Positions 1 through 59,393 of a stretch of 64,000 nucleotides of DNA are shown piece after piece. This DNA is from a virus. The notes below the pieces were generated by a model, which was not told the origin of the DNA, did no database searches, and saw nothing but the letters and a program-made list of their open reading frames with translations. The first letter of the stretch is position 1. Every line of letters begins with the position of its first letter. The DNA is taken from positions 32,001-96,000 of IMG/VR virus record IMGVR_UViG_3300050821_002963, one strand, 5' to 3'. The position numbers and the translations under genes are program-made.

Positions 1-3
1 GCG

Positions 4-198
4 ATGAGCATGGGCAAGGGAGAGTGGGGAGATAACTCGGTCTTCCTTTGGGTGGCTGCACACAGATACGATAAGCAGTATGTCGGGGCTCACGTTATCA
101 CGGACTACGACCGGGGCATATTCTACGACAGAGACGAGACTTTGAAAAGGGAGAAAATAGAACGTGCGAAAGCAACAGCGGCAGCAACGAAACCCTAA
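4..198 (+). CDS. hypothetical protein (probably truncated at the window edge)
   Basis: ORF track; same strand as all neighbours; no recognisable motif. Confidence 0.4.
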   Translation: MSMGKGEWGDNSVFLWVAAHRYDKQYVGAHVITDYDRGIFYDRDETLKREKIERAKATAAATKP

Positions 199-745
199 AA
201 TCGGTTACCATCATACGTCTTGGGAATGTTGGAAGCAGATACAGAAGGCTGGGGCTATCCTTCCTTATCGGCACATGAGACACGAACAGGAATTGGTAGA
301 CTCTGGATTCAAGCCACCAGTTCTGGGGGTTTGGATTTGGACTGAGCCTATGGATTTGGCTTCGGAATACGCCAACGTGTTTTGGCACGTGTGTACTAAA
401 AGGACGAAGAGAGTCGTGATACTACAGGTCGAGTGGTACGAGAGTGAGAGGTTGCTGACAGGGGATGGGAGAAACTATGTTTCCCTCTATCACAGAATCA
501 CGTGGGACAATGTGGTGGAGTTTCACGAGAACTCGATAGCGACCATCCTCGGTAGTCCGATACCACTGGCTGGAATAAAACTACTAAGGGAGTACGACTT
601 TTCAGATCATGTGAGGATAGTCCATGACTTTAATCGTTCCTACGGCGTACAGGCGCCTTTACTACCGGGAAAGGAAACAGAACATTTGCCTGAGGTGTTT
701 CAAGCCAGCCACAGTCGGCTTGAGATGCGACAAGTGCAGGGCTGA
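164..745 (+). CDS. hypothetical phage protein
   Basis: 193-aa ORF; YHHT...GVWIW could hint at an ART-like fold but this is not supportable by eye. Confidence 0.55.
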   Translation: MRKQQRQQRNPKIGYHHTSWECWKQIQKAGAILPYRHMRHEQELVDSGFKPPVLGVWIWTEPMDLASEYANVFWHVCTKRTKRVVILQVEWYESERLLTGDGRNYVSLYHRITWDNVVEFHENSIATILGSPIPLAGIKLLREYDFSDHVRIVHDFNRSYGVQAPLLPGKETEHLPEVFQASHSRLEMRQVQG

Positions 746-775
746 AAGAAAACAACAGAACGTTGGGAGGAAGAG

Positions 776-934
776 ATGAGAGTAAAAGTAGGAACTCATA
801 CGGTGACTGGTGGAGATATATGGGGTAGAGCAGCAGGCATCTTGGAAATGTTGAGAAACCGCGGTGATAAAATACTAGCTGTGGTATGTTGCGAGATGAC
901 GCTGGTGATTTATCACGAGTATGAGGAGAAGTAG
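776..934 (+). CDS. small hypothetical protein (52 aa)
   Basis: Read by hand: GGAGG SD, ATG 776, TAG 932-934 abutting the next ATG. Confidence 0.5.
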   Translation: MRVKVGTHTVTGGDIWGRAAGILEMLRNRGDKILAVVCCEMTLVIYHEYEEK

Positions 935-1108
935 ATGAACAACGATTACGCAGAAGATGCGGAAGAGATACTGGACACTGCTATCCAGAAGGTGCCAGAG
1001 GATGCCACGGAAGTGGACATCCATGTTACGTGGAAGACTCTGGAGAGCGATAACCTAGAATCGGAGTACGTGCCGGATGTAACGGTGAAATGGAAGAGGG
1101 GAGTATGA
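935..1108 (+). CDS. small acidic hypothetical protein (57 aa)
   Basis: Read by hand: GAGGAG SD, ATG 935, TGA 1106-1108. Confidence 0.55.
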   Translation: MNNDYAEDAEEILDTAIQKVPEDATEVDIHVTWKTLESDNLESEYVPDVTVKWKRGV

Positions 1109-1109
1109 G

Positions 1110-1226
1110 GTGTTTGACTTCTTCGATATCCTCTCCCAGCACGGGATTGAGGTAAAGGAAAGTTACGGCTCGGAAGACGAGTTCAGAATCAATTGTCTGT
1201 TCTGCACGGACATGGGAGTTAGTTAG
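1110..1226 (+). pseudogene. stranded 38-codon duplicate of the primase N-terminus
   Basis: GTG-started MFDFFDILSQHGIEVKESYGSEDEFRINCLFCTDMGVS* aligns without gaps to the primase start MFNFFELLSQKGIDIRENASSQDEYRICCLFCVDMG (22 of 36 identical, counted by hand). Confidence 0.9.
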
Positions 1227-1709
1227 ATGAAAGAAAAGTGGAGGCCAGTTTGCGGGGGAAAGTATCAGATATCTGACTCGGGAAGATTTCGTAATGCTAG
1301 AACAATGCAGCTACTGAAAATTGGTCATGGAGCTACAGGCGGTTATGCGACAGTTGTGTTTTATGATGAACAGGCTCGTCAAGTTACAAAAAGAGTACAT
1401 CGTTTGGTAGCAGCAGCCTTTCTCGGTCCTTGTCCAGTTGGTATGGAAGTGAATCACAAGGATACGAATAAAAGAAACAATTGTTTGGACAACTTAGAGT
1501 ACGTGACCTCGAAAAGGAATCATGCACACGCTAGGAGTAGAGGATTGTGGTCCTCTTGTAGAAATCGCTATTATCTTACTCCAGAATTGGTTTTGAGAAT
1601 TAGAAAGGAAGCAGCAACAAGGACTTGTGCTGACGTTGGAAAAGAATTTGGCCTAGCCCCTCAGACAGTTTCGAATATTAGAAACTACAGAGTTTGGAAA
1701 AATGTTTAA
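1227..1709 (+). mobile_element. free-standing NUMOD4-HNH homing endonuclease with C-terminal HTH
   Basis: EKWRPV..YQISDSGR (NUMOD4), VHRLVAAAFLG..EVNHKDTNKRNNCLDNLEY (HNH), C-terminal HTH-like helices. Confidence 0.9.
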
Positions 1710-2652
1710 CTTTTTTGAGCTGCTAAGCCAGAAGGGCATAGACATTAGGGAGAATGCCTCTAGCCAGGATGAGTATCGTATATGCTGTTTATTTTGTGTT
1801 GATATGGGCTACACACCTGATTTTAAGTTCAGACTTGGGTTCAACGTTCAATCTGGATTGGGGCATTGTTTTAACTGCGGTTGGTCTTCTAGAAAAGTAA
1901 TCATAGAGATTCTGAAAAAGCTGGGAGAAGGATACCAGGAAGTAACGACGGAGAACTACACCAAGCAGACTAGGAAAAGACCGGAGCCAGTTAAGTTACC
2001 AGAAGGATTTGAGCTATTAGCAGACACGGATGAAGACGACCCAATGTTCGGGGAAGCAAGGCGGTATGTGGCAAAGAGGGGAATTACCGAGAATCAGCTG
2101 AAAAAACACCTAATAGGAGCGACGGTAGCCGACTATCGTTACAAGAACAGTATCATCTTCCCCGTACCAATGGCGGATGGGAAGCTGGCTGGTATCGTGT
2201 CGAGAGACTACACGGGAAAGCGGGACCCAAAGTATTTGAACTCCATTGGTACGAAAGTAATCTATAACGTGTTTGGGGACTACTCGGAAGTGGCTGTGAT
2301 TCTCTCGGAAGGGATTACGAAGGCACTGGCCATAGAGAGGGCGGTAGGAGAGGGCATATGCTCTGGTGCGACTCTTGGCCACTCCATAACGGACACGCAG
2401 ATAGAAGGGTTGAAGAAATTCCGGGAAGTAATCCTTTTTCCAGACCCAGACTACGCCGGGCTGGTTGGGTTTATTGGCGTGGCGGCGAATCTGAGACCAG
2501 TGGTGAGGAAAGTAACAATGGCGTGGCCATGGCCACAGAGACAGGCAGACGACTTATCGGTAAAAGAAATCAGAGAGCACCTGAGAAATAGAAAAGAGTT
2601 TACCCCAGCGGTGCAGTTGCGGTTGAAGATGGAGTTGAGAGGTAGGGGATGA
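1702..2652 (+). CDS. DnaG-type DNA primase (Zn finger + TOPRIM)
   Basis: CLFC...HCFNC zinc finger; IIFPV..GIVSR..PKYLNS; TOPRIM ILSEG...LFPDPDYAG. Confidence 0.88.
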   Translation: MFNFFELLSQKGIDIRENASSQDEYRICCLFCVDMGYTPDFKFRLGFNVQSGLGHCFNCGWSSRKVIIEILKKLGEGYQEVTTENYTKQTRKRPEPVKLPEGFELLADTDEDDPMFGEARRYVAKRGITENQLKKHLIGATVADYRYKNSIIFPVPMADGKLAGIVSRDYTGKRDPKYLNSIGTKVIYNVFGDYSEVAVILSEGITKALAIERAVGEGICSGATLGHSITDTQIEGLKKFREVILFPDPDYAGLVGFIGVAANLRPVVRKVTMAWPWPQRQADDLSVKEIREHLRNRKEFTPAVQLRLKMELRGRG

Positions 2653-2813
2653 GTCAGAGTAAATGTTGGCAATGTCATCGGGAAGTTTCGACAACGTGCG
2701 ATTGTTGCGACAAGGCACTTTGTGATTACTGCTACGACCAAGGACAGGGCAAGTGCGACTACTGTGTAGAGAACTGTGACCAGAGGCACAACGATTGCAG
2801 GACGAAAGAATAA
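2649..2813 (+). CDS. small Cys-rich putative zinc-finger protein (54 aa)
   Basis: Read by hand: MSQSKCWQCHREVSTTCDCCDKALCDYC...KCDYC; ATGA overlap with the primase stop. Confidence 0.6.
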   Translation: MSQSKCWQCHREVSTTCDCCDKALCDYCYDQGQGKCDYCVENCDQRHNDCRTKE

Positions 2814-2815
2814 AA

Positions 2816-3706
2816 ATGGCGGAAGTAATCCTAGTGGACGGGAAAATGATGGGCTTCCGGGCTCACTATTCTCATCTGGCTCTAAGAACGAGGCAGGGAG
2901 AATCTTCTGGGATGCTGCACGGGTTTCTGGTGGAGTTGATGCAGATAAACAAGACCAAGCCAGAAGCCAAGATTGTGGTCTGCTGGGACGGACCGGGGAA
3001 GAATTGGCGGCATGGGGCGTTTCCAGCGTACAAGGCGAACAGAACCCATAACGCGGAATACAAGAATCTCATCTCCCAGTCGGAAATTCTTTTACACGCT
3101 TTGCAAGATTTGGGATTGAAGGTGGCGGTCGTTGCGGGTGTGGAAGCGGACGATATGTTGGGGGTGCTTTCCACTAGGCTTTCGGAAAAGAATGACGTGC
3201 TGGTGTACTCATCGGATAGGGATATGTACCAGTTAGCTGGGCCACGAGTAAAGGTGTGGCCTGGATACAAAAGTAATCCGATGGGTACTCAGGAGATAGA
3301 AAAGTGGTTGGGGGCTCCGTTCAGCTCGCTCATGGAAATCAGGGCCATGGCTGGTGATGCTGGTGATAACCTGAAGGGTTTACCGCGAGTTGGGTACAAG
3401 ACGGCGGTAAAATTGTGGAAAGGGGGTACGACGCTCAAGTCCTCTTCGCATGGCTTCGCACAAGAGGACTGGAACAGAATGCTAAAGGAACACAAATTGG
3501 CGTTAATAATCAGGGACGAGAATGCTCCATGCTGGACAGACGTGCAACGATTAAAACTCGGACAGTTGGTGCACGCGATTGTGAGACAGCCGGGTCGAGA
3601 TATGGTTTTGGCAGAGGAAAGGAAGCGGAAATTCTACGAGTTTCTGGGACGTTATGAACTCGAAGAAATCTTTCGCTCCCGAGCGAAACTTTATGCCATT
3701 CCATAA
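2816..3706 (+). CDS. 5'-3' exonuclease / flap endonuclease (Pol I N-terminal-like, T4 RNase H-like)
   Basis: ILVDG, VVCWDG..WRH...YKANR, VEADD, SSDRDMYQL, GDAGDNLKGLPRVGYKTA (H3TH). Confidence 0.92.
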   Translation: MAEVILVDGKMMGFRAHYSHLALRTRQGESSGMLHGFLVELMQINKTKPEAKIVVCWDGPGKNWRHGAFPAYKANRTHNAEYKNLISQSEILLHALQDLGLKVAVVAGVEADDMLGVLSTRLSEKNDVLVYSSDRDMYQLAGPRVKVWPGYKSNPMGTQEIEKWLGAPFSSLMEIRAMAGDAGDNLKGLPRVGYKTAVKLWKGGTTLKSSSHGFAQEDWNRMLKEHKLALIIRDENAPCWTDVQRLKLGQLVHAIVRQPGRDMVLAEERKRKFYEFLGRYELEEIFRSRAKLYAIP

Positions 3707-3735
3707 TTGACATTAGATAAATGACATACTAAAAT
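3707..3735 (+). promoter_or_regulatory. sigma70-type promoter upstream of the sigma-like gene
   Basis: TTGACA (3707-3712), 17-nt spacer, TAAAAT (3730-3735) in an intergenic gap. Confidence 0.75.
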
Positions 3736-3786
3736 CGGGCTACGTTGTTTCTCTCAAACAAATCAAATTACGGGAGTCGCGTCTCT

Positions 3787-4341
3787 ATGAGAAAGACAAA
3801 AGAGCAAAGGACGGTTGAATTGGTCGGGCAGTACCGGGGCCTGGCCATGAAGCTTGCGTGGGACTATTGGAAGCGGTTACCAGCAGCCACGAAGATGTGG
3901 GTGGACCCGGATGACCTGATAGCAGAGGCCATCTGTCATATCGTGACGTTCGTGTTGAACGATTACGATAAGAAGCGGGCGAGCCTGAGTACATTTATGT
4001 ATTGCAGTACGAATGGACATCTCATGAACTTCGCGTTGGCCCAGACCGCGGCCAAGAGATATGGATTCCGGGCGGACTTGGAAGACGCGTGGGGAGTGGG
4101 AGTCAAGGAGTCAAAATTCCAGTTGGTGGATGCCCTGAATGCTTTCGAGGCGGTTTACGGTCAGGCTTCGGAAGGATTGCAGGACGAGATTTGTCAATGG
4201 TTTGGCGTGGATAGAAAAGCCCCGAGACGGTCTGCGGAAGGGAAAGAGTTGATTCGGGAGTTCGGTCATCTGGCTTACCAGAACAGACTCTCTGAATCGG
4301 ATTGTCGGCTCTTATTGCGGAGCGGAGTATGGGTTCCATAG
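3787..4341 (+). CDS. phage sigma-70-like factor (region 2)
   Basis: LAMKLAWDY...DPDDLIAEA...YDKKRASLSTFMY...NGHLMNF resembles sigma region 2; ATG 3787 with GGGAG SD. Confidence 0.65.
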   Translation: MRKTKEQRTVELVGQYRGLAMKLAWDYWKRLPAATKMWVDPDDLIAEAICHIVTFVLNDYDKKRASLSTFMYCSTNGHLMNFALAQTAAKRYGFRADLEDAWGVGVKESKFQLVDALNAFEAVYGQASEGLQDEICQWFGVDRKAPRRSAEGKELIREFGHLAYQNRLSESDCRLLLRSGVWVP

Positions 4342-4601
4342 AAGACAAGCAGCTGCTGTGGTGTCTCCTTTGTAGCAACCGGTTCACGGTCCGGGACGCA
4401 GAGGAGGGAAGATATCGGGGAGGGACCGGTATCTGCATGGAGTGCTATACCAGCATGGCGAAAAGTACAAAGACTTGTTTCGGGAAACAATCAGGCGAAG
4501 GCTTGGCGGGGTATGACGAGTCAGCGGAGGAGTGCCTCCGGTTCTGTCCGGACCGGAAAGTCTGTAAAGAGTTCGTCACCATTCAAAAAAGGCTCGGTTA
4601 G
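4329..4601 (+). CDS. Cys-rich putative zinc-binding protein
   Basis: CLLC, CMEC, CFG...ECLRFCPDRKVC. Confidence 0.55.
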   Translation: MGSIEDKQLLWCLLCSNRFTVRDAEEGRYRGGTGICMECYTSMAKSTKTCFGKQSGEGLAGYDESAEECLRFCPDRKVCKEFVTIQKRLG

Positions 4602-4764
4602 GGAGAAAGCGTTCCACTTTCTACAGAAAGACAGGACGTTACCAGAGCTACGTACGTTCATCCGAAAGCTGGGGGCATCACCCCAGGACCTCCTGAGGTA
4701 CCTGAGGAAGTACGAGTTAATCATGGAGTTTCAAGAGAAAGTAACCTGGAAGTATCATGCCTGA
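4513..4764 (+). CDS. small basic hypothetical protein (possible winged helix)
   Basis: PFKKGSVREKAF...; fills the gap and overlaps the next gene start. Confidence 0.5.
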   Translation: MTSQRRSASGSVRTGKSVKSSSPFKKGSVREKAFHFLQKDRTLPELRTFIRKLGASPQDLLRYLRKYELIMEFQEKVTWKYHA

Positions 4765-5770
4765 GAAGAAAAAAGAGAATAAGCTGGTTCTGGCAAACGG
4801 GCCTGTGCCAAAAGTCGTGCCTCAGTCGGACGAGACCCCGATTGTGTATTTGTCCCATTCGATTGTGCATACCAAAGAACTGGAAAGAGAATTTCTGGAT
4901 TGCACGGGTGTGAGATACAGGTGCTGCTCATTTGTGTATCTGCACCCGGAAGCAATCTACTGGACTCCTAGAGCGTGGGAAGGCTACGAAGTAAATGTGG
5001 AACGGGGCAACCATATCATGATGGATTCGGGTGCGTTCTCGTTCCACACCTTTCTATTCAAGAACAAGAACATTCCTAATGTCAACCAACTCAGGGATAA
5101 GACGATAGAGCTGTACGTGGAGTTCTGTAAAAAGAGACAGAAGGAATGGGACTTCTATGTGACGTTCGACTACGTTAGAGAGGTGGAAGTGGTATGGAGG
5201 ATTACGAAAGAGTTGGAGGCCCATGGTATACGCCCAGCTCCGGTATATCACGGGGACAAGTCATTAGATTGGATGCGACGGTATCTGGATGCCGGTTACA
5301 AGAGAATTGGTATATCGTCTTTGCTGGGAGTGCGGTCGAAGCACACCACTTTGAGATTTTACCTGGACAGGTTATTCAAATTGGTGGAACCTTACAAAGT
5401 AAAGCTGCACGGATTTGCCATGACTTCTCTGTCAACGATGTATGCCTATCCTTGGCACAGTGTGGACTCGAGCAGTTGGAGCCGAACGTCTTCCTACGGT
5501 TGCATTTACCTAGTGGACGAAGGCCGAAACTCTTTACGCTCGATACACGTGTCTTTAGAAAATTCTACGAATACGAATTCGGTTTCCAAACTATCAAAGG
5601 AGAGCCAGAAGTCAGTCCGGGATTATGTGGAGGGCAAAGGCTTCGACTTCGACTTGCTAAGACGGTCGGTGACCTACAGACACATCTTTAACGGTTGGTT
5701 GTTCTCGCACTTAGGGAGTTTCAAAAAACAGATACAGGATACGCACGTAAAGTGGGGGACACTTCTATGA
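4757..5770 (+). CDS. DpdA/TGT-like 7-deazaguanine DNA transglycosylase (putative)
   Basis: MMDSGAFSF, YVTFD, PVYHG, LHGFA, SVDSSSW motifs of the TGT-fold family; translationally coupled to folE. Confidence 0.72.
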   Translation: MPEKKKENKLVLANGPVPKVVPQSDETPIVYLSHSIVHTKELEREFLDCTGVRYRCCSFVYLHPEAIYWTPRAWEGYEVNVERGNHIMMDSGAFSFHTFLFKNKNIPNVNQLRDKTIELYVEFCKKRQKEWDFYVTFDYVREVEVVWRITKELEAHGIRPAPVYHGDKSLDWMRRYLDAGYKRIGISSLLGVRSKHTTLRFYLDRLFKLVEPYKVKLHGFAMTSLSTMYAYPWHSVDSSSWSRTSSYGCIYLVDEGRNSLRSIHVSLENSTNTNSVSKLSKESQKSVRDYVEGKGFDFDLLRRSVTYRHIFNGWLFSHLGSFKKQIQDTHVKWGTLL

Positions 5771-6423
5771 GTAGTCTGATTATGCCGGTAACGACAACGG
5801 TCAAGATACCGGGACTTTCCAAAAAGGCTTTTGAACAGGACGTGGAGTTGGCGATGACGAATATCCTGCTATCACTGGAGAAGAATTCTGGAAAGAAGAT
5901 AGTAGGAGATGGGAACTTTTCTGCTACTCCGTCTAGGGTTGGAAGAGCGTATGTAGAATTGCTGGACGGAATGTTTCATGAAAATGGGGTGAAAGAAATT
6001 CTGGCTACGACGTTTCCAGCGAAAGGCGACGAGATGGTAACCGTTGGACCAGTAGACACGTGGTCAGTATGTGCCCATCATTTCTTACCAGTGCATCTGC
6101 ATGTATGGCTAGCATATATTCCAAGAAAGAAAGTGCTGGGGCTTTCTAAGTTGGCACGGTTGGCAGAGCTATTGGCTAAGCGGCCTGGATTACAGGAGGA
6201 TGTGACATTCGATATTGCTAAAACACTTTATGATGGGTTGAAACCATTGGGGGCAGCTTGTCTTATCAGAGGTAGACATCTCTGTATGGAGATGAGAGGT
6301 GTTAAGAAATCTTCGGTGACTACGACTACATCTTTACAAGGAGCTTTTAAGAAGAATGCTGCGGCCAAGTCTGAGTTCCTAGAAGCAGTCAGAGCAGACA
6401 TGGCAGATAATGGGAGATGGTGA
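5767..6423 (+). CDS. folE: GTP cyclohydrolase I
   Basis: TPSRV, SVCAHHFLP, GLSKLAR, LQE, HLCMEMRGV motifs. Confidence 0.95.
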   Translation: MSSLIMPVTTTVKIPGLSKKAFEQDVELAMTNILLSLEKNSGKKIVGDGNFSATPSRVGRAYVELLDGMFHENGVKEILATTFPAKGDEMVTVGPVDTWSVCAHHFLPVHLHVWLAYIPRKKVLGLSKLARLAELLAKRPGLQEDVTFDIAKTLYDGLKPLGAACLIRGRHLCMEMRGVKKSSVTTTTSLQGAFKKNAAAKSEFLEAVRADMADNGRW

Positions 6424-24769: not shown

Positions 24770-25088
24770 GTTGGAAGACATTCGTCGGATACCTTTACCG
24801 GAAGGTGCCGAGCGAGTAGAGACTGGGCCAATCAGATTCGGGGACGATTGGCCCGGTACATTCATTCGTGGCGACGACAGTTTCTTCCATCGCTATAATG
24901 TCGCCAGGGCAATCGAGTGGTTGAAAGCCAAAGAACATACGGATTCAAGCATGGACCTGTTTCTAGCCAGGAAAGGCTTGGAAGGTTTGGCAGAGATATT
25001 GGACGCTAGTAATCTCTATGAAAAGGTGCGCGGATATAAATGGACGAACACTTCTCAAAGTACGGCTTCCAAAGAGACGAAGACCTAA
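24762..25088 (+). CDS. hypothetical phage protein
   Basis: RVETGPIRFGDDWPGTFIRGD; ORF track. Confidence 0.6.
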   Translation: MSKLEDIRRIPLPEGAERVETGPIRFGDDWPGTFIRGDDSFFHRYNVARAIEWLKAKEHTDSSMDLFLARKGLEGLAEILDASNLYEKVRGYKWTNTSQSTASKETKT

Positions 25089-25825
25089 TCATGAAGTTCA
25101 TCGGCGGCTCTCAGTTGCATGGTGCAAAGCTGGAGGGTACGGATGATGAAGATTGGTACGGAGTTTATATTGAGCCGAGAGAACTGGCATTGGGCATAGA
25201 CTCGGAAGAGCATTTCGTCTTTACGACAGGTGGTCAGCGTGGCGGTAACGGTCCGGAAGATGTGGACGTTTGTCTCTACACACTGAGGAAGACAGCCAAG
25301 TTAATTGCCAAGGGTAATCCCTCAGTTCTACATTTCCTCTTTGCCAAGCCAGAGTTTCAGACGGTAGTTTGGGCAAAGTTTAATCAGAACAGAGAAGCCT
25401 TCCTGGCTAAGAATCAGGTGAACCAGTTTTTTGGGTTTGCTGAAGCTCAGCTTAGAAGATTGTACAATCAACAGGGACAAAAGAATGTGCATCGTGGTGA
25501 GCTGGAGGAAGCCCATGGTTACGATACGAAATACGCGATGCATGTGGTGCGCCTTTACGGAGAAGCTTTGGAATTTCTAAGGACGGGCGTAATCACCTTG
25601 CCCAGACCAAACAAGGATGAGTTGATTGCTATAAGACAGGGCAAGTGGAAGTTGCCGGAGTTTCAGAAGTATGCAGAGGAACTGAAAAGACAAGCTGAAG
25701 AAGAGAAAGATAAATCTCCGCTCCCGGATAGAGTGGACAGAAAGGAGATATCGAGGCTGGTTGCCCAAGCGTATGAGATGCATTGGGAGCAGGCCAAGTA
25801 CAGGAAGGTGGCAGCTATGAACTAA
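25040..25825 (+). CDS. Pol-beta superfamily nucleotidyltransferase (YcgL/T4 NrdC.11-like)
   Basis: GGSQLHG...TDDEDWYGVY, KGNPS, GYDTKYAMHVVRL, LIAIRQG. Confidence 0.85.
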   Translation: MDEHFSKYGFQRDEDLIMKFIGGSQLHGAKLEGTDDEDWYGVYIEPRELALGIDSEEHFVFTTGGQRGGNGPEDVDVCLYTLRKTAKLIAKGNPSVLHFLFAKPEFQTVVWAKFNQNREAFLAKNQVNQFFGFAEAQLRRLYNQQGQKNVHRGELEEAHGYDTKYAMHVVRLYGEALEFLRTGVITLPRPNKDELIAIRQGKWKLPEFQKYAEELKRQAEEEKDKSPLPDRVDRKEISRLVAQAYEMHWEQAKYRKVAAMN

Positions 25826-58174: not shown

Positions 58175-58893
58175 TTTTCTCCAGAACGATGAGGCTGGAC
58201 GACTACAACTATTTGACAGAGGAAAGCTTGTTGATGCAGCAGATAGTCAACGCTATCCAGATGTGGTATCCAGCTCAGCATCAGCATAGGAGATGGGAAT
58301 ACGCGCTGGCATTAAAAGCTTTCAAGCAAGTGTTTGGAGAACAGAAAGGTTTAACGGTTACTGACCACGGATGCGGAGCTGGATTCCTTAGTCCAATGAT
58401 GTACTGGTTGGGACAGAACGTTTGGATGTACGAGTGCTGGACGATGGGAAGTGCTGAGCAGTACATGATGGAGCAGATGAGGCGGGTGGGAGTTCACCGT
58501 GGGCAGGATGCTGGAACGTATGAGATGCGGACTAGGCCATTGGGTGAGTTGGTCGAGGCGGATGGTGGGGTCGACGCGGCCTTTTGCATATCGACACTTG
58601 AGCACATTGGAGAGTATCAAAAAGCTTTTCGGGATTTATTGAACACGGTTAAGCCCGGTGGATTGCTTGGGCTTACGACGGATTTCGCAGAGCACGAGTT
58701 GGATGACTATCAATACGCCGGCCTTAGGGCCGGCAAGATGTTTACTGAGAAAACGTATTTGGAATTGGAAGCTATAGGTGAAGAGAATGGATTTGAACTT
58801 TTAGGTGGCGCGGCCGATTGGGGTTGGTCGGAAGAGAATCGTTTGGTTAATAACTATGGCTTTGCAGCTTTATTCATGGTGAGGCATGAATGA
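58171..58893 (+). CDS. class I SAM-dependent methyltransferase
   Basis: RRWEY, DHGCGAG, CISTLEHI, VKPGG..TTDF. Confidence 0.85.
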   Translation: MIFSRTMRLDDYNYLTEESLLMQQIVNAIQMWYPAQHQHRRWEYALALKAFKQVFGEQKGLTVTDHGCGAGFLSPMMYWLGQNVWMYECWTMGSAEQYMMEQMRRVGVHRGQDAGTYEMRTRPLGELVEADGGVDAAFCISTLEHIGEYQKAFRDLLNTVKPGGLLGLTTDFAEHELDDYQYAGLRAGKMFTEKTYLELEAIGEENGFELLGGAADWGWSEENRLVNNYGFAALFMVRHE

Positions 58894-59393
58894 AAGAACG
58901 ATGGAAGCCTGTTTTTGGGGGCATATACGCTGTATCGGATAGAGGTAGAGTTAGAAGGGAAGCTCCAGGAATTAATACTTTCCCTGGAAAGATTTTGAGA
59001 CCTTGCCCAGTTCCAGATTGGTATGTAGTTGGCGTGGCTGTGGTTAATGGAAAAAGAATTTCGTACAACGTCCACGTTTTAGTTGCAGAGGCTTTTCTAG
59101 GACCTAGACCTAGAGGAAAGCAAGTGAATCATAAGGATGGAGATAAACACAATAACGTTTGGAAGAACTTGGAGTACAAGACACCTAAGCAAAACCAACA
59201 GCATTCTTCTAAGCTAGGATTAATAGCGTATGGGGAAAGAAACGGTAACTCCAAGTTGACTGAGAAAAAAGTTGCTGAAATGCGGGAAAAGTTTGCGATA
59301 AGTAAGCCTAGTTACGTTCAGTTAGGTAGACAGTTTGGTGTTACAAAAGAAATGGCAAGTCTGATTATAAGAAGGAAGAATTGGGTTAGATAA
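58890..59393 (+). mobile_element. free-standing NUMOD4-HNH homing endonuclease
   Basis: ERWKPV..YAVSDRGRVR, VHVLVAEAFLG..VNHKDGDKHNN..NLEY, GERNGNSKLT, HTH. Confidence 0.9.

Follow-up and report, generated by a model that had tools for sequence, protein, structure and literature searches.

How can a homing endonuclease gene reside in an essential gene when it is neither spliced out as an intron nor removed as an intein? This question is raised by a locus at positions 1110 to 2652 of a 64,000-nucleotide stretch of viral DNA, here called the window (bases 32001-96000 of the 131.5-kb linear viral record IMGVR_UViG_3300050821_002963, from soil, estimated completeness 82%). There, an open reading frame (ORF) for an HNH endonuclease sits between a full-length primase gene and a stranded duplicate of the 5' end of that gene. 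From the comparisons below, we consider it probable that an I-HmuI-like HNH gene entered the primase together with the 5' module of a diverged donor, leaving the native start upstream as a relic.

Layout of the primase locus

All features of the locus lie on the plus strand. The stranded 5' end, or relic (copy A, 1110..1226), is an ORF of 38 amino acids with a GTG start; its codons 1-37 are homologous to the primase and are followed by a serine codon and TAG. A purine-rich Shine-Dalgarno-like tract, GGAAGAGGGGAG (1092..1103), lies 6 nt before the GTG and is presumably the native ribosome-binding site of the primase, and the preceding ORF (935-1108) ends in TGA upstream of the GTG at 1110. Aligned with primase residues 1-38, the relic is identical at 22/38 positions and positive at 32/38 without a gap (BLASTP, E 3e-17), and all 22 identities fall within the first 36 residues. 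It terminates as ...CLFCTDMGVS, five residues past the first CxxC of the zinc finger. An original prediction for this DNA, made from its letters alone, had described a 38-codon ORF with its own Shine-Dalgarno sequence directly upstream of the HNH gene, a gap-free copy of the first 36 primase residues (22/36 identical) that stops right after the first CxxC. Each of these points is borne out.

The HNH gene (1227..1709) encodes 160 amino acids, arranged as a NUMOD4 domain, an HNH_3 domain and a C-terminal tail. The TAG of the relic abuts its ATG, and the two ORFs lie in one frame with that single TAG between them. Its likely ribosome-binding site is GGGAG (1214..1218), 8 nt before the ATG and within primase codons 35-37 of the relic. 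At the other end, the TAA stop codon of the HNH gene overlaps the primase ATG (ATGTTTAA), so the joining of the new primase start to the HNH stop, which had also been predicted, is visible in the DNA. Because of the TAG-ATG junction, the GGGAG and the stop-start overlap, the three ORFs are predicted to be coupled in translation, one after another, and to draw on the native primase signals.

The full-length, DnaG-type primase (copy B, 1702..2652) is 316 amino acids long and is the working copy, probably a chimera. It matches DNAG_N in Pfam (32 bits, cut-off 26) and PHROG 47 'DNA primase' (E 3.7e-42), and its Toprim score of 20.6 bits is under the 23.1 cut-off of that model. Across 23 family members, this primase among them, it retains all 39 invariant columns. 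These include the four zinc-finger cysteines (C29, C32, C56 and C59), all of which lie within the candidate replacement module described below. The relic duplicates residues 1-38, which are already encoded downstream. Because it repeats what the working copy contains, the two pieces are not complementary and the primase is not a split gene.

A free-standing HNH endonuclease

The domain assignments of the HNH ORF are above their thresholds: HNH_3 at E 1e-15 (57.5 bits, cut-off 24.8) and NUMOD4 at E 2.9e-6 (27.8 bits, cut-off 23.4). It also matches PHROG 59 (E 1.4e-44). A single solved structure is related to it, PDB 1u3e (E 2.6e-10 over residues 5-110), which its depositors title only 'HNH homing endonuclease' and which we take to be I-HmuI of Bacillus phage SPO1. 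If so, the two enzymes share the same NUMOD4 and HNH_3 front end but differ in setting: I-HmuI is encoded within a DNA polymerase gene, in a group I intron, whereas the HNH gene here is free-standing, with no intron detected.

Searches of positions 800-2800 with group I and group II intron models gave no match at E<=10. In addition, the HNH gene begins and ends with codons of its own, a TAG preceding its ATG and a TAA closing it, and since these stop codons interrupt the frame, an intein is excluded. The endonuclease therefore lies inside an essential gene without an intron or intein, as the original prediction had it. Searches for promoters, terminators and nucleotide repeats returned nothing relevant, and an Rfam match to STnc180 was discarded as chance (21 bits, where the gathering score is 50).

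The HNH gene is sporadic among otherwise syntenic relatives, and its composition is foreign. None of 14 other primase loci, each including the primase 5' end, carries an HNH gene or a second primase fragment within the flanks compared. GC content at third codon positions (GC3) is 0.33 in the HNH gene, the lowest among 102 long ORFs of the genome. The same genome holds two further NUMOD4 and HNH_3 genes, 39% and 47% identical to this one, at 58890-59393 of the window (L009, 1501-2004) and at 24777-25346 of G000, outside the window (L010, 1411-1980); their GC3 values are the second and fifth lowest of the 102. The former is flanked by a methyltransferase gene and a GDP-mannose 4,6-dehydratase gene.

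The stranded copy resembles the closest relative

Which of the two 5' ends is native? A large protein database contained 79 relatives of the working primase, the closest of which, P0002, is 66% identical and the next 55%. P0002 is a contiguous protein of 316 amino acids that begins with V, matching the GTG start of the relic, shares its 'DMGV' and reads VFDFFSILYQHGIEV...CLFCGDMGVEPD. Its N-terminus is identical to the relic at 27/36 positions and to the working copy at 21/36. The original prediction expected the primases of HNH-less relatives to start like the copy at 1110. P0002, the single informative relative and compared as a protein only, does start in this way; it is not closer to 1702-1810 than to the 1110 copy. 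By hand count of the sites at which relic and working copy differ, P0002 agrees with the relic eight times and with the working copy once.

Trees gave a similar picture. Over residues 101-316 the primase is sister to P0002 with 99% support in the Shimodaira-Hasegawa-like approximate likelihood ratio test (SH-aLRT). For the 36 columns that the relic covers, it is the relic that pairs with P0002 (support 99/80), on a terminal branch of 0.047 compared to 0.29 for the working copy. Among 33 more distant relatives (P0003-P0035), 12 are closer to the relic, 8 are closer to the working copy and 13 tie. To judge from these residues, the relic has native character.

Several further searches bear on the same question. 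When a search was scored on residues 1-80 only, P0002 was absent from the 18 hits. Sliding-window identity to P0002 is suggestive but noisy, as P0002 also drops from first rank at residues 261-300. Residues 1-45 of P0002 found no fragment-sized homologues among shorter proteins. The sole hit of an exhaustive phmmer search with the relic, P0081, is a helicase with repeated modules and was judged spurious.

Divergence and composition of the working 5' end

The relic and the working copy are identical at 61/114 nucleotides (53%) and at only 11/38 third positions. They use the same codon at 4 of the 20 identical residues that allow synonymous choice, compared to 7.9 expected at random, and no nucleotide repeat was detected between them. 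With so little left in common at silent sites, the two copies must have diverged long ago. The relic is nonetheless intact: start codon and reading frame are preserved, and it is still 78% identical to P0002. Synonymous saturation together with an intact relic makes a recent duplication in place unlikely.

The base composition of the locus changes in steps. GC3 is 0.69 in the relic, 0.50 in primase codons 1-36 and 0.41 in codons 37-75, set against the 0.33 of the HNH gene and a genome mean of 0.535 (standard deviation 0.064, 102 ORFs). The original prediction had contrasted a relic that favors C-ending codons with a working end as rich in T and A as the HNH gene. The direction of this contrast holds (0.69 > 0.50 > 0.33), but the working 5' end alone is within the normal GC3 range of the genome, from the 20th to the 41st percentile.

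Taken with the HNH gene, the working end stands out more clearly. The genome has three low-GC blocks of 700 nt, which coincide with its three HNH genes, and no others. At this locus, the best-fitting low-GC block runs from 1259 to 1919 (GC 0.405 versus 0.501 outside; twice the log-likelihood difference 18.9) and takes in about 73 primase codons. The GC and codon profile thus serves as the junction map for which it had been proposed, with a right edge supported between 1859 and 2159. We use this change-point to delimit the putative replacement 5' module (about codons 1-73, 1702..1919), whose right boundary is approximate, from what would be the native primase body (1920..2652), comprising the linker, the RNA-polymerase/Toprim core and the C-terminus. 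The body has a GC of 0.51, a GC3 of 0.58 and genome-like codon usage, and if the relic were joined to it, the composition would be normal by comparison with the loci of relatives. From the body to codons 1-75, GC falls by 0.106 and GC3 by 0.123. This is the largest drop among 13 primase loci; the worst relative falls by 0.069 in GC3, and for GC the margin over the relatives is modest. A synonymous-codon score trained on the other two HNH genes of the genome gave -0.23 for the relic, -0.20 for codons 74-316, both genome-like, and -0.01 for codons 2-73, a shift towards the HNH-like end.

Duplicated gene ends elsewhere in the HNH family

We surveyed the flanks of related HNH genes for other duplications. 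The sample was the best 80 of at least 549 confirmed relatives (584 pattern matches listed), plus L009, L010, L023 and L024. For each, 1.2 kb upstream of the HNH gene was compared with 1.2 kb downstream in all frames on the same strand (E<=1e-3). The locus in the window was recovered as a positive control. Flank duplication was found in 4/84 other loci and in 0/85 controls with mismatched flanks. At the two HNH paralogues of this genome, as at L023 and L024, a search for duplicated gene ends found nothing below E 0.01.

The clearest case, L054, again concerns a 5' end. On this related viral contig, some 100 nt are repeated exactly, in direct orientation, on either side of the HNH gene (2447-3169). 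The repeat comprises the ribosome-binding site and the opening 26 codons of a 147-amino-acid gene of unknown family (3209-3652), and it leaves a 32-codon ORF upstream (2321-2419). The duplication looks very recent. A second HNH_3 gene (3885-4802) lies about 230 nt past the 147-amino-acid gene. L053 is a 3' case: the C-terminal half of a 63-amino-acid ORF (2101-2292) is repeated, at 52% over 33 amino acids, as a 37-amino-acid ORF (3004-3117) just past an HNH gene with a long N-terminal extension (2255-3019). Its neighbors include an ArsR-type helix-turn-helix gene and a D12 adenine methyltransferase gene.

The remaining two cases are less clear. L025 is weaker, with 21 lysine/arginine-rich residues at 67% repeating the end of the upstream gene after the HNH gene. 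Its HNH gene (2501-2998) is the closest relative of ours among the matches listed (39%). About 200 nt downstream of it begins a gene for a T7 gp4-like primase-helicase (3197-4819; Toprim_2 and DnaB_C), a placement that may hint at a preference for primase neighborhoods or may be chance. In L079 (HNH ORF 1938-2915), the similarity is on the reverse strand, 42% over 48 amino acids between the region just upstream of the HNH gene and a region 0.5-0.7 kb downstream. It does not adjoin the HNH gene and may reflect a paralogous domain instead of a stranded gene end.

A model for gene-end replacement

How might this arrangement have formed? In our model, the HNH gene would have entered at about codon 37/38 of the primase, in the first zinc knuckle, through recombination with a diverged donor phage and not as an intron or intein. 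By analogy with systems in which such cutting has been demonstrated, the enzyme would nick or cut HNH-less primase alleles near codon 37, and repair from a co-infecting, HNH-bearing phage would copy the HNH gene plus the adjoining diverged primase start. The incoming DNA would consist of the HNH gene and then the 5' module of the donor primase, some 73 codons that hold the whole zinc-binding domain. The right-hand crossover would fall after this domain, in or just past the linker, and a crossover at that position would have fused a foreign zinc finger to the native catalytic body, making the working gene a chimera. Meanwhile, the first 37 codons of the recipient, with their start and ribosome-binding site, would have been pushed upstream and left as the 38-codon relic. 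The replacement end is presumably not recognized by the enzyme. In the eight codons before the junction, 12/24 nucleotides differ between the copies, yet 6/8 residues are the same.

A bolder version of this idea is that the HNH gene, the replacement end and the stranded end make up one self-contained mobile unit in phages, capable of repeated homing in the manner of the WHO elements of yeast. We regard this as conceivable but doubtful. Comparisons with Pfam, PHROG and primase fragments found no cluster of older relics and no second relic in the window, and the upstream spacer (198-1110) yielded no older relic, decayed endonuclease gene or second primase fragment. If the idea is true, the relic would not be junk: it would supply upstream homology when the element next homes, and it would also act as a leader ORF that hands the promoter and ribosomes of the target to the endonuclease. 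Each homing event would then swap a whole functional module between phages. Because the primase zinc-binding domain reads priming sites, homing would, on these terms, drive modular evolution of replication specificity. Such a unit would be a natural counterpart of the engineered 'home-and-rescue' gene drives described as aimed at an essential gene (PMC7968924).

Weighing the alternatives

A number of results weigh against a foreign origin of the working 5' end. P0002 is the sole relative close enough to inform and is known from its protein alone; DNA scans around it gave one viral contig at 37% and 11 metagenome loci at <=53%, none of them its own. In approximately unbiased (AU) tests, a clade of working copy and P0002 was not rejected over 74 zinc-finger columns (p 0.51). 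Over the 36 relic columns, neither pairing of the working copy was rejected, be it with the relic (p 0.30) or with P0002 (p 0.19). Protein phylogeny is of little power here. A weak calibration on 561 pairs of relatives placed the working N-terminus and P0002 at z = -1.36 and the relic and P0002 at z = +1.58. The zinc-finger domains of 12 HNH-less relatives also dip in GC (mean -0.023, worst -0.086), so the genome-wide percentile of 0.4% for the low-GC block overstates the signal. The codon score of codons 2-73 is not significant, being equaled or passed by 12.6% of background windows. A donor of residues 1-80 was not found, the best database match being 64%. Finally, two sequencing runs showed neither an HNH-less allele nor its joint, and in the second run no piece crosses a junction, so that this negative does not speak against the existence of such an allele. 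The original claim that the HNH gene brought a diverged new 5' end is favored by saturation against the relic, by a low-GC block joined to the HNH gene and by the most extreme drop in composition of 13 loci, but the AU result, the codon score and the missing donor keep the evidence from being decisive.

Could both copies have arisen within this genome? The primase 5' end might have been doubled in place when the HNH gene inserted, with the downstream, working copy then diverging or being recoded. Such duplications occur: the identical flanks of the HNH gene in L054 make an in-place origin mechanistically possible, a further point against entry from a donor, and the AU test did not reject relic and working copy as sisters. 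The copies in the window, by contrast, are at or beyond saturation at synonymous sites, and an untranslated or useless relic should have decayed over such a time instead of remaining intact on its short branch. Moreover, relic and working copy differ at 42% of residues and relic and P0002 at 22%, which would place the duplication before this lineage and that of P0002 separated, yet P0002 has a contiguous gene of the relic type. We consider this origin improbable, and we assign no better prospects to a reversal of polarity, in which the whole of 1702-2652 is native and the relic and HNH gene came from a P0002-like donor in which the relic-HNH-primase layout was already present. The protein tests are compatible with a fully native working gene (AU p 0.51; z -1.36), and because homing donors are expected to be close relatives, a P0002-like relic would be no surprise. 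Reversed polarity leaves unexplained a low-GC block that is contiguous with the HNH gene and extends over primase codons 1-73, it does not fit the genome-like composition of the relic, and, with a donor that must already have the layout, it merely moves the origin one step back.

Two other accounts concern the relic itself. It might be functional, as an exon joined by splicing or ribosomal bypass or as a selected small peptide or leader, and its start codon, ribosome-binding site and frame have indeed all been kept. There is also a precedent in phage ICP1, where a short, unannotated N-terminal terminase exon beside a homing endonuclease gene is reported to have proved spliced (PMC10448857). 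At the present locus, the intron searches were negative, and the working gene lacks no exon, since its own N-terminus is complete and includes all four zinc-binding cysteines; the relic duplicates part of the primase and does not complete it. A functional relic is therefore very unlikely. An assembly artefact that fused two strain variants of the primase is more unlikely still, indeed barely credible. The record is a metagenome assembly, and neither the junction at 1220-1227 nor that at 1702 is spanned by independent reads. A second assembly of the probable source run nevertheless gives positions 1-6000 as one contig with no differences, and a run from another study contains identical pieces in the HNH gene (1389-1673) and the upstream ORF (7 short pieces in total). 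Furthermore, copies that are only 53% identical in nucleotides cannot be created by the collapse of strain variants. Entry of the HNH gene with a donor's primase 5' module thus remains the probable account.

Relation to known homing systems

Paquin et al. are said to have reported, in 1994, a gene hybrid involving a mobile endonuclease ORF at atp6 of Allomyces macrogynus. In Glomus atp6, atp9, cox2 and nad3, as in Allomyces, mobile endonuclease ORFs are described as bringing a foreign C-terminus, with the native C-terminus lying downstream and being nearer that of sister species (PMC3630166). This account confirms that gene-end replacement by homing endonucleases is known in fungal mitochondria, as the original prediction had stated. 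The mitochondrial hybrids, as presented there, resemble our locus in that an endonuclease ORF separates a working chimeric gene from a stranded duplicate of the gene end, and in that the stranded end is nearer the sister taxon while the end in use is diverged and was interpreted as horizontally transferred. They differ in affecting the 3' end, in using LAGLIDADG or GIY-YIG enzymes and in residing in organelles, whereas a 5' end, an HNH enzyme and a phage gene are involved here. In addition, unlike those hybrids, the present locus would re-initiate its new start through the overlap with the HNH stop codon. Related arrangements are described in Endoconidiophora, where cob and atp6 have duplicated C-termini next to degenerate endonuclease ORFs (PMC6279837), and as an N-terminal duplication with partial foreign gene replacement, linked to intron mobility, in Tremella mitochondria (PMC8393795).

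The WHO elements of yeast offer a second parallel. By the published description, a resistant allele takes the place of the 3' end of FBA1, the stranded old end serves as a homology arm, and allele-specific cleavage was shown experimentally (PMC7282813). Both there and, on our reading, here, the end of an essential gene is replaced and the old end lies beside the endonuclease gene with no splicing, although cutting by our HNH enzyme is a prediction. WHO elements, as described, differ in acting at a 3' end, in an intein-derived LAGLIDADG enzyme, in their nuclear genome and in clusters built by repeated homing.

Among phages, the nearest comparison is with the free-standing endonucleases of T4-like phages, such as SegF, SegG and MobE, and their 'intronless homing'. 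A review of T4 homing describes genes that adjoin their targets, are sporadically distributed and cause co-conversion of flanking markers (PMC2988022), all of which would be shared here. The difference is that the gene invaded in our window would have been rebuilt from a carried-in 5' module with a relic left behind, and is neither split nor intact. Endonuclease genes also occur within the coding regions of essential genes of replication or nucleotide metabolism in Aeh1 nrdA/mobE and T4 genes 39/60/mobA, but by that account the pieces of those genes are complementary and both are needed, whereas our upstream piece duplicates the downstream one (PMC2988022). As effects on genome structure, the review lists nothing but split genes, and the stem 'duplicat' is absent from it (PMC2988022). 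Likewise, the passages searched in papers on ICP1, Skunavirus and Xanthomonas phages describe no layout of this kind. In the open full-text literature, which leaves most subscription journals and supplements outside its scope, we found no phage account of an endonuclease gene flanked by the duplicated end of the gene it invaded. The principle is therefore known. What these comparisons support as new is a 5'-end, phage and HNH version of gene-end-replacement homing, one that probably swaps the whole zinc-binding domain of an essential primase.

Genomic setting

The locus lies in a conserved replication module, which consists of the genes for helicase, primase, flap endonuclease and ORF198, in a genome with 96 of its 102 ORFs (non-overlapping, >=150 amino acids) on the plus strand. 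Megablast of window positions 1-5000 found no nucleotide match among GenBank phages, and tblastn with the primase reached annotated phage primase relatives at <=30% identity at best.

The spacer between helicase and primase varies strongly in length. It measures 912 nt in the window (198-1110), 30-63 nt in five relatives (L012, L001-L003 and L011) and 2.3-3.7 kb in L013-L015, with dCTP-deaminase-like and NADAR genes in that of L013. The three ORFs of the spacer in the window have no Pfam or PHROG match and no homologue in the loci of relatives. The 10-mer GAGTATGAGG occurs at two successive gene junctions, at 917-926 and 1101-1110; at each it covers both the end of the preceding ORF and the ribosome-binding region of the one that follows. 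Downstream, an ORF for 54 amino acids (2649-2813), very rich in cysteine and with motifs of the CxxC and CDxC type, overlaps the primase stop codon with its start (ATGA) and has no Pfam or PHROG match. Further along, a GTP cyclohydrolase I gene (5695-6423; Pfam E 6.8e-48) overlaps the end of a 337-amino-acid ORF (4757-5770) that has no Pfam match. Phage-encoded GTP cyclohydrolase I is often part of 7-deazaguanine DNA-modification pathways.

Significance

If our reading is right, this locus represents a third route into essential phage genes, one that needs no intron, intein or split protein because a replacement gene end is carried in. The relic marks the likely target to within a few bases, at codon 37/38 in the first zinc knuckle, which would make the specificity of the enzyme directly testable. 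Our quick survey suggests that the layout is not rare in the HNH family and occurs at both 5' and 3' gene ends. For annotation, this means that short ORFs beside HNH genes may be gene-end relics and not novel small proteins. More broadly, the locus suggests selfish homing as a means by which entire protein domains pass from phage to phage, in this case the zinc finger of a primase.

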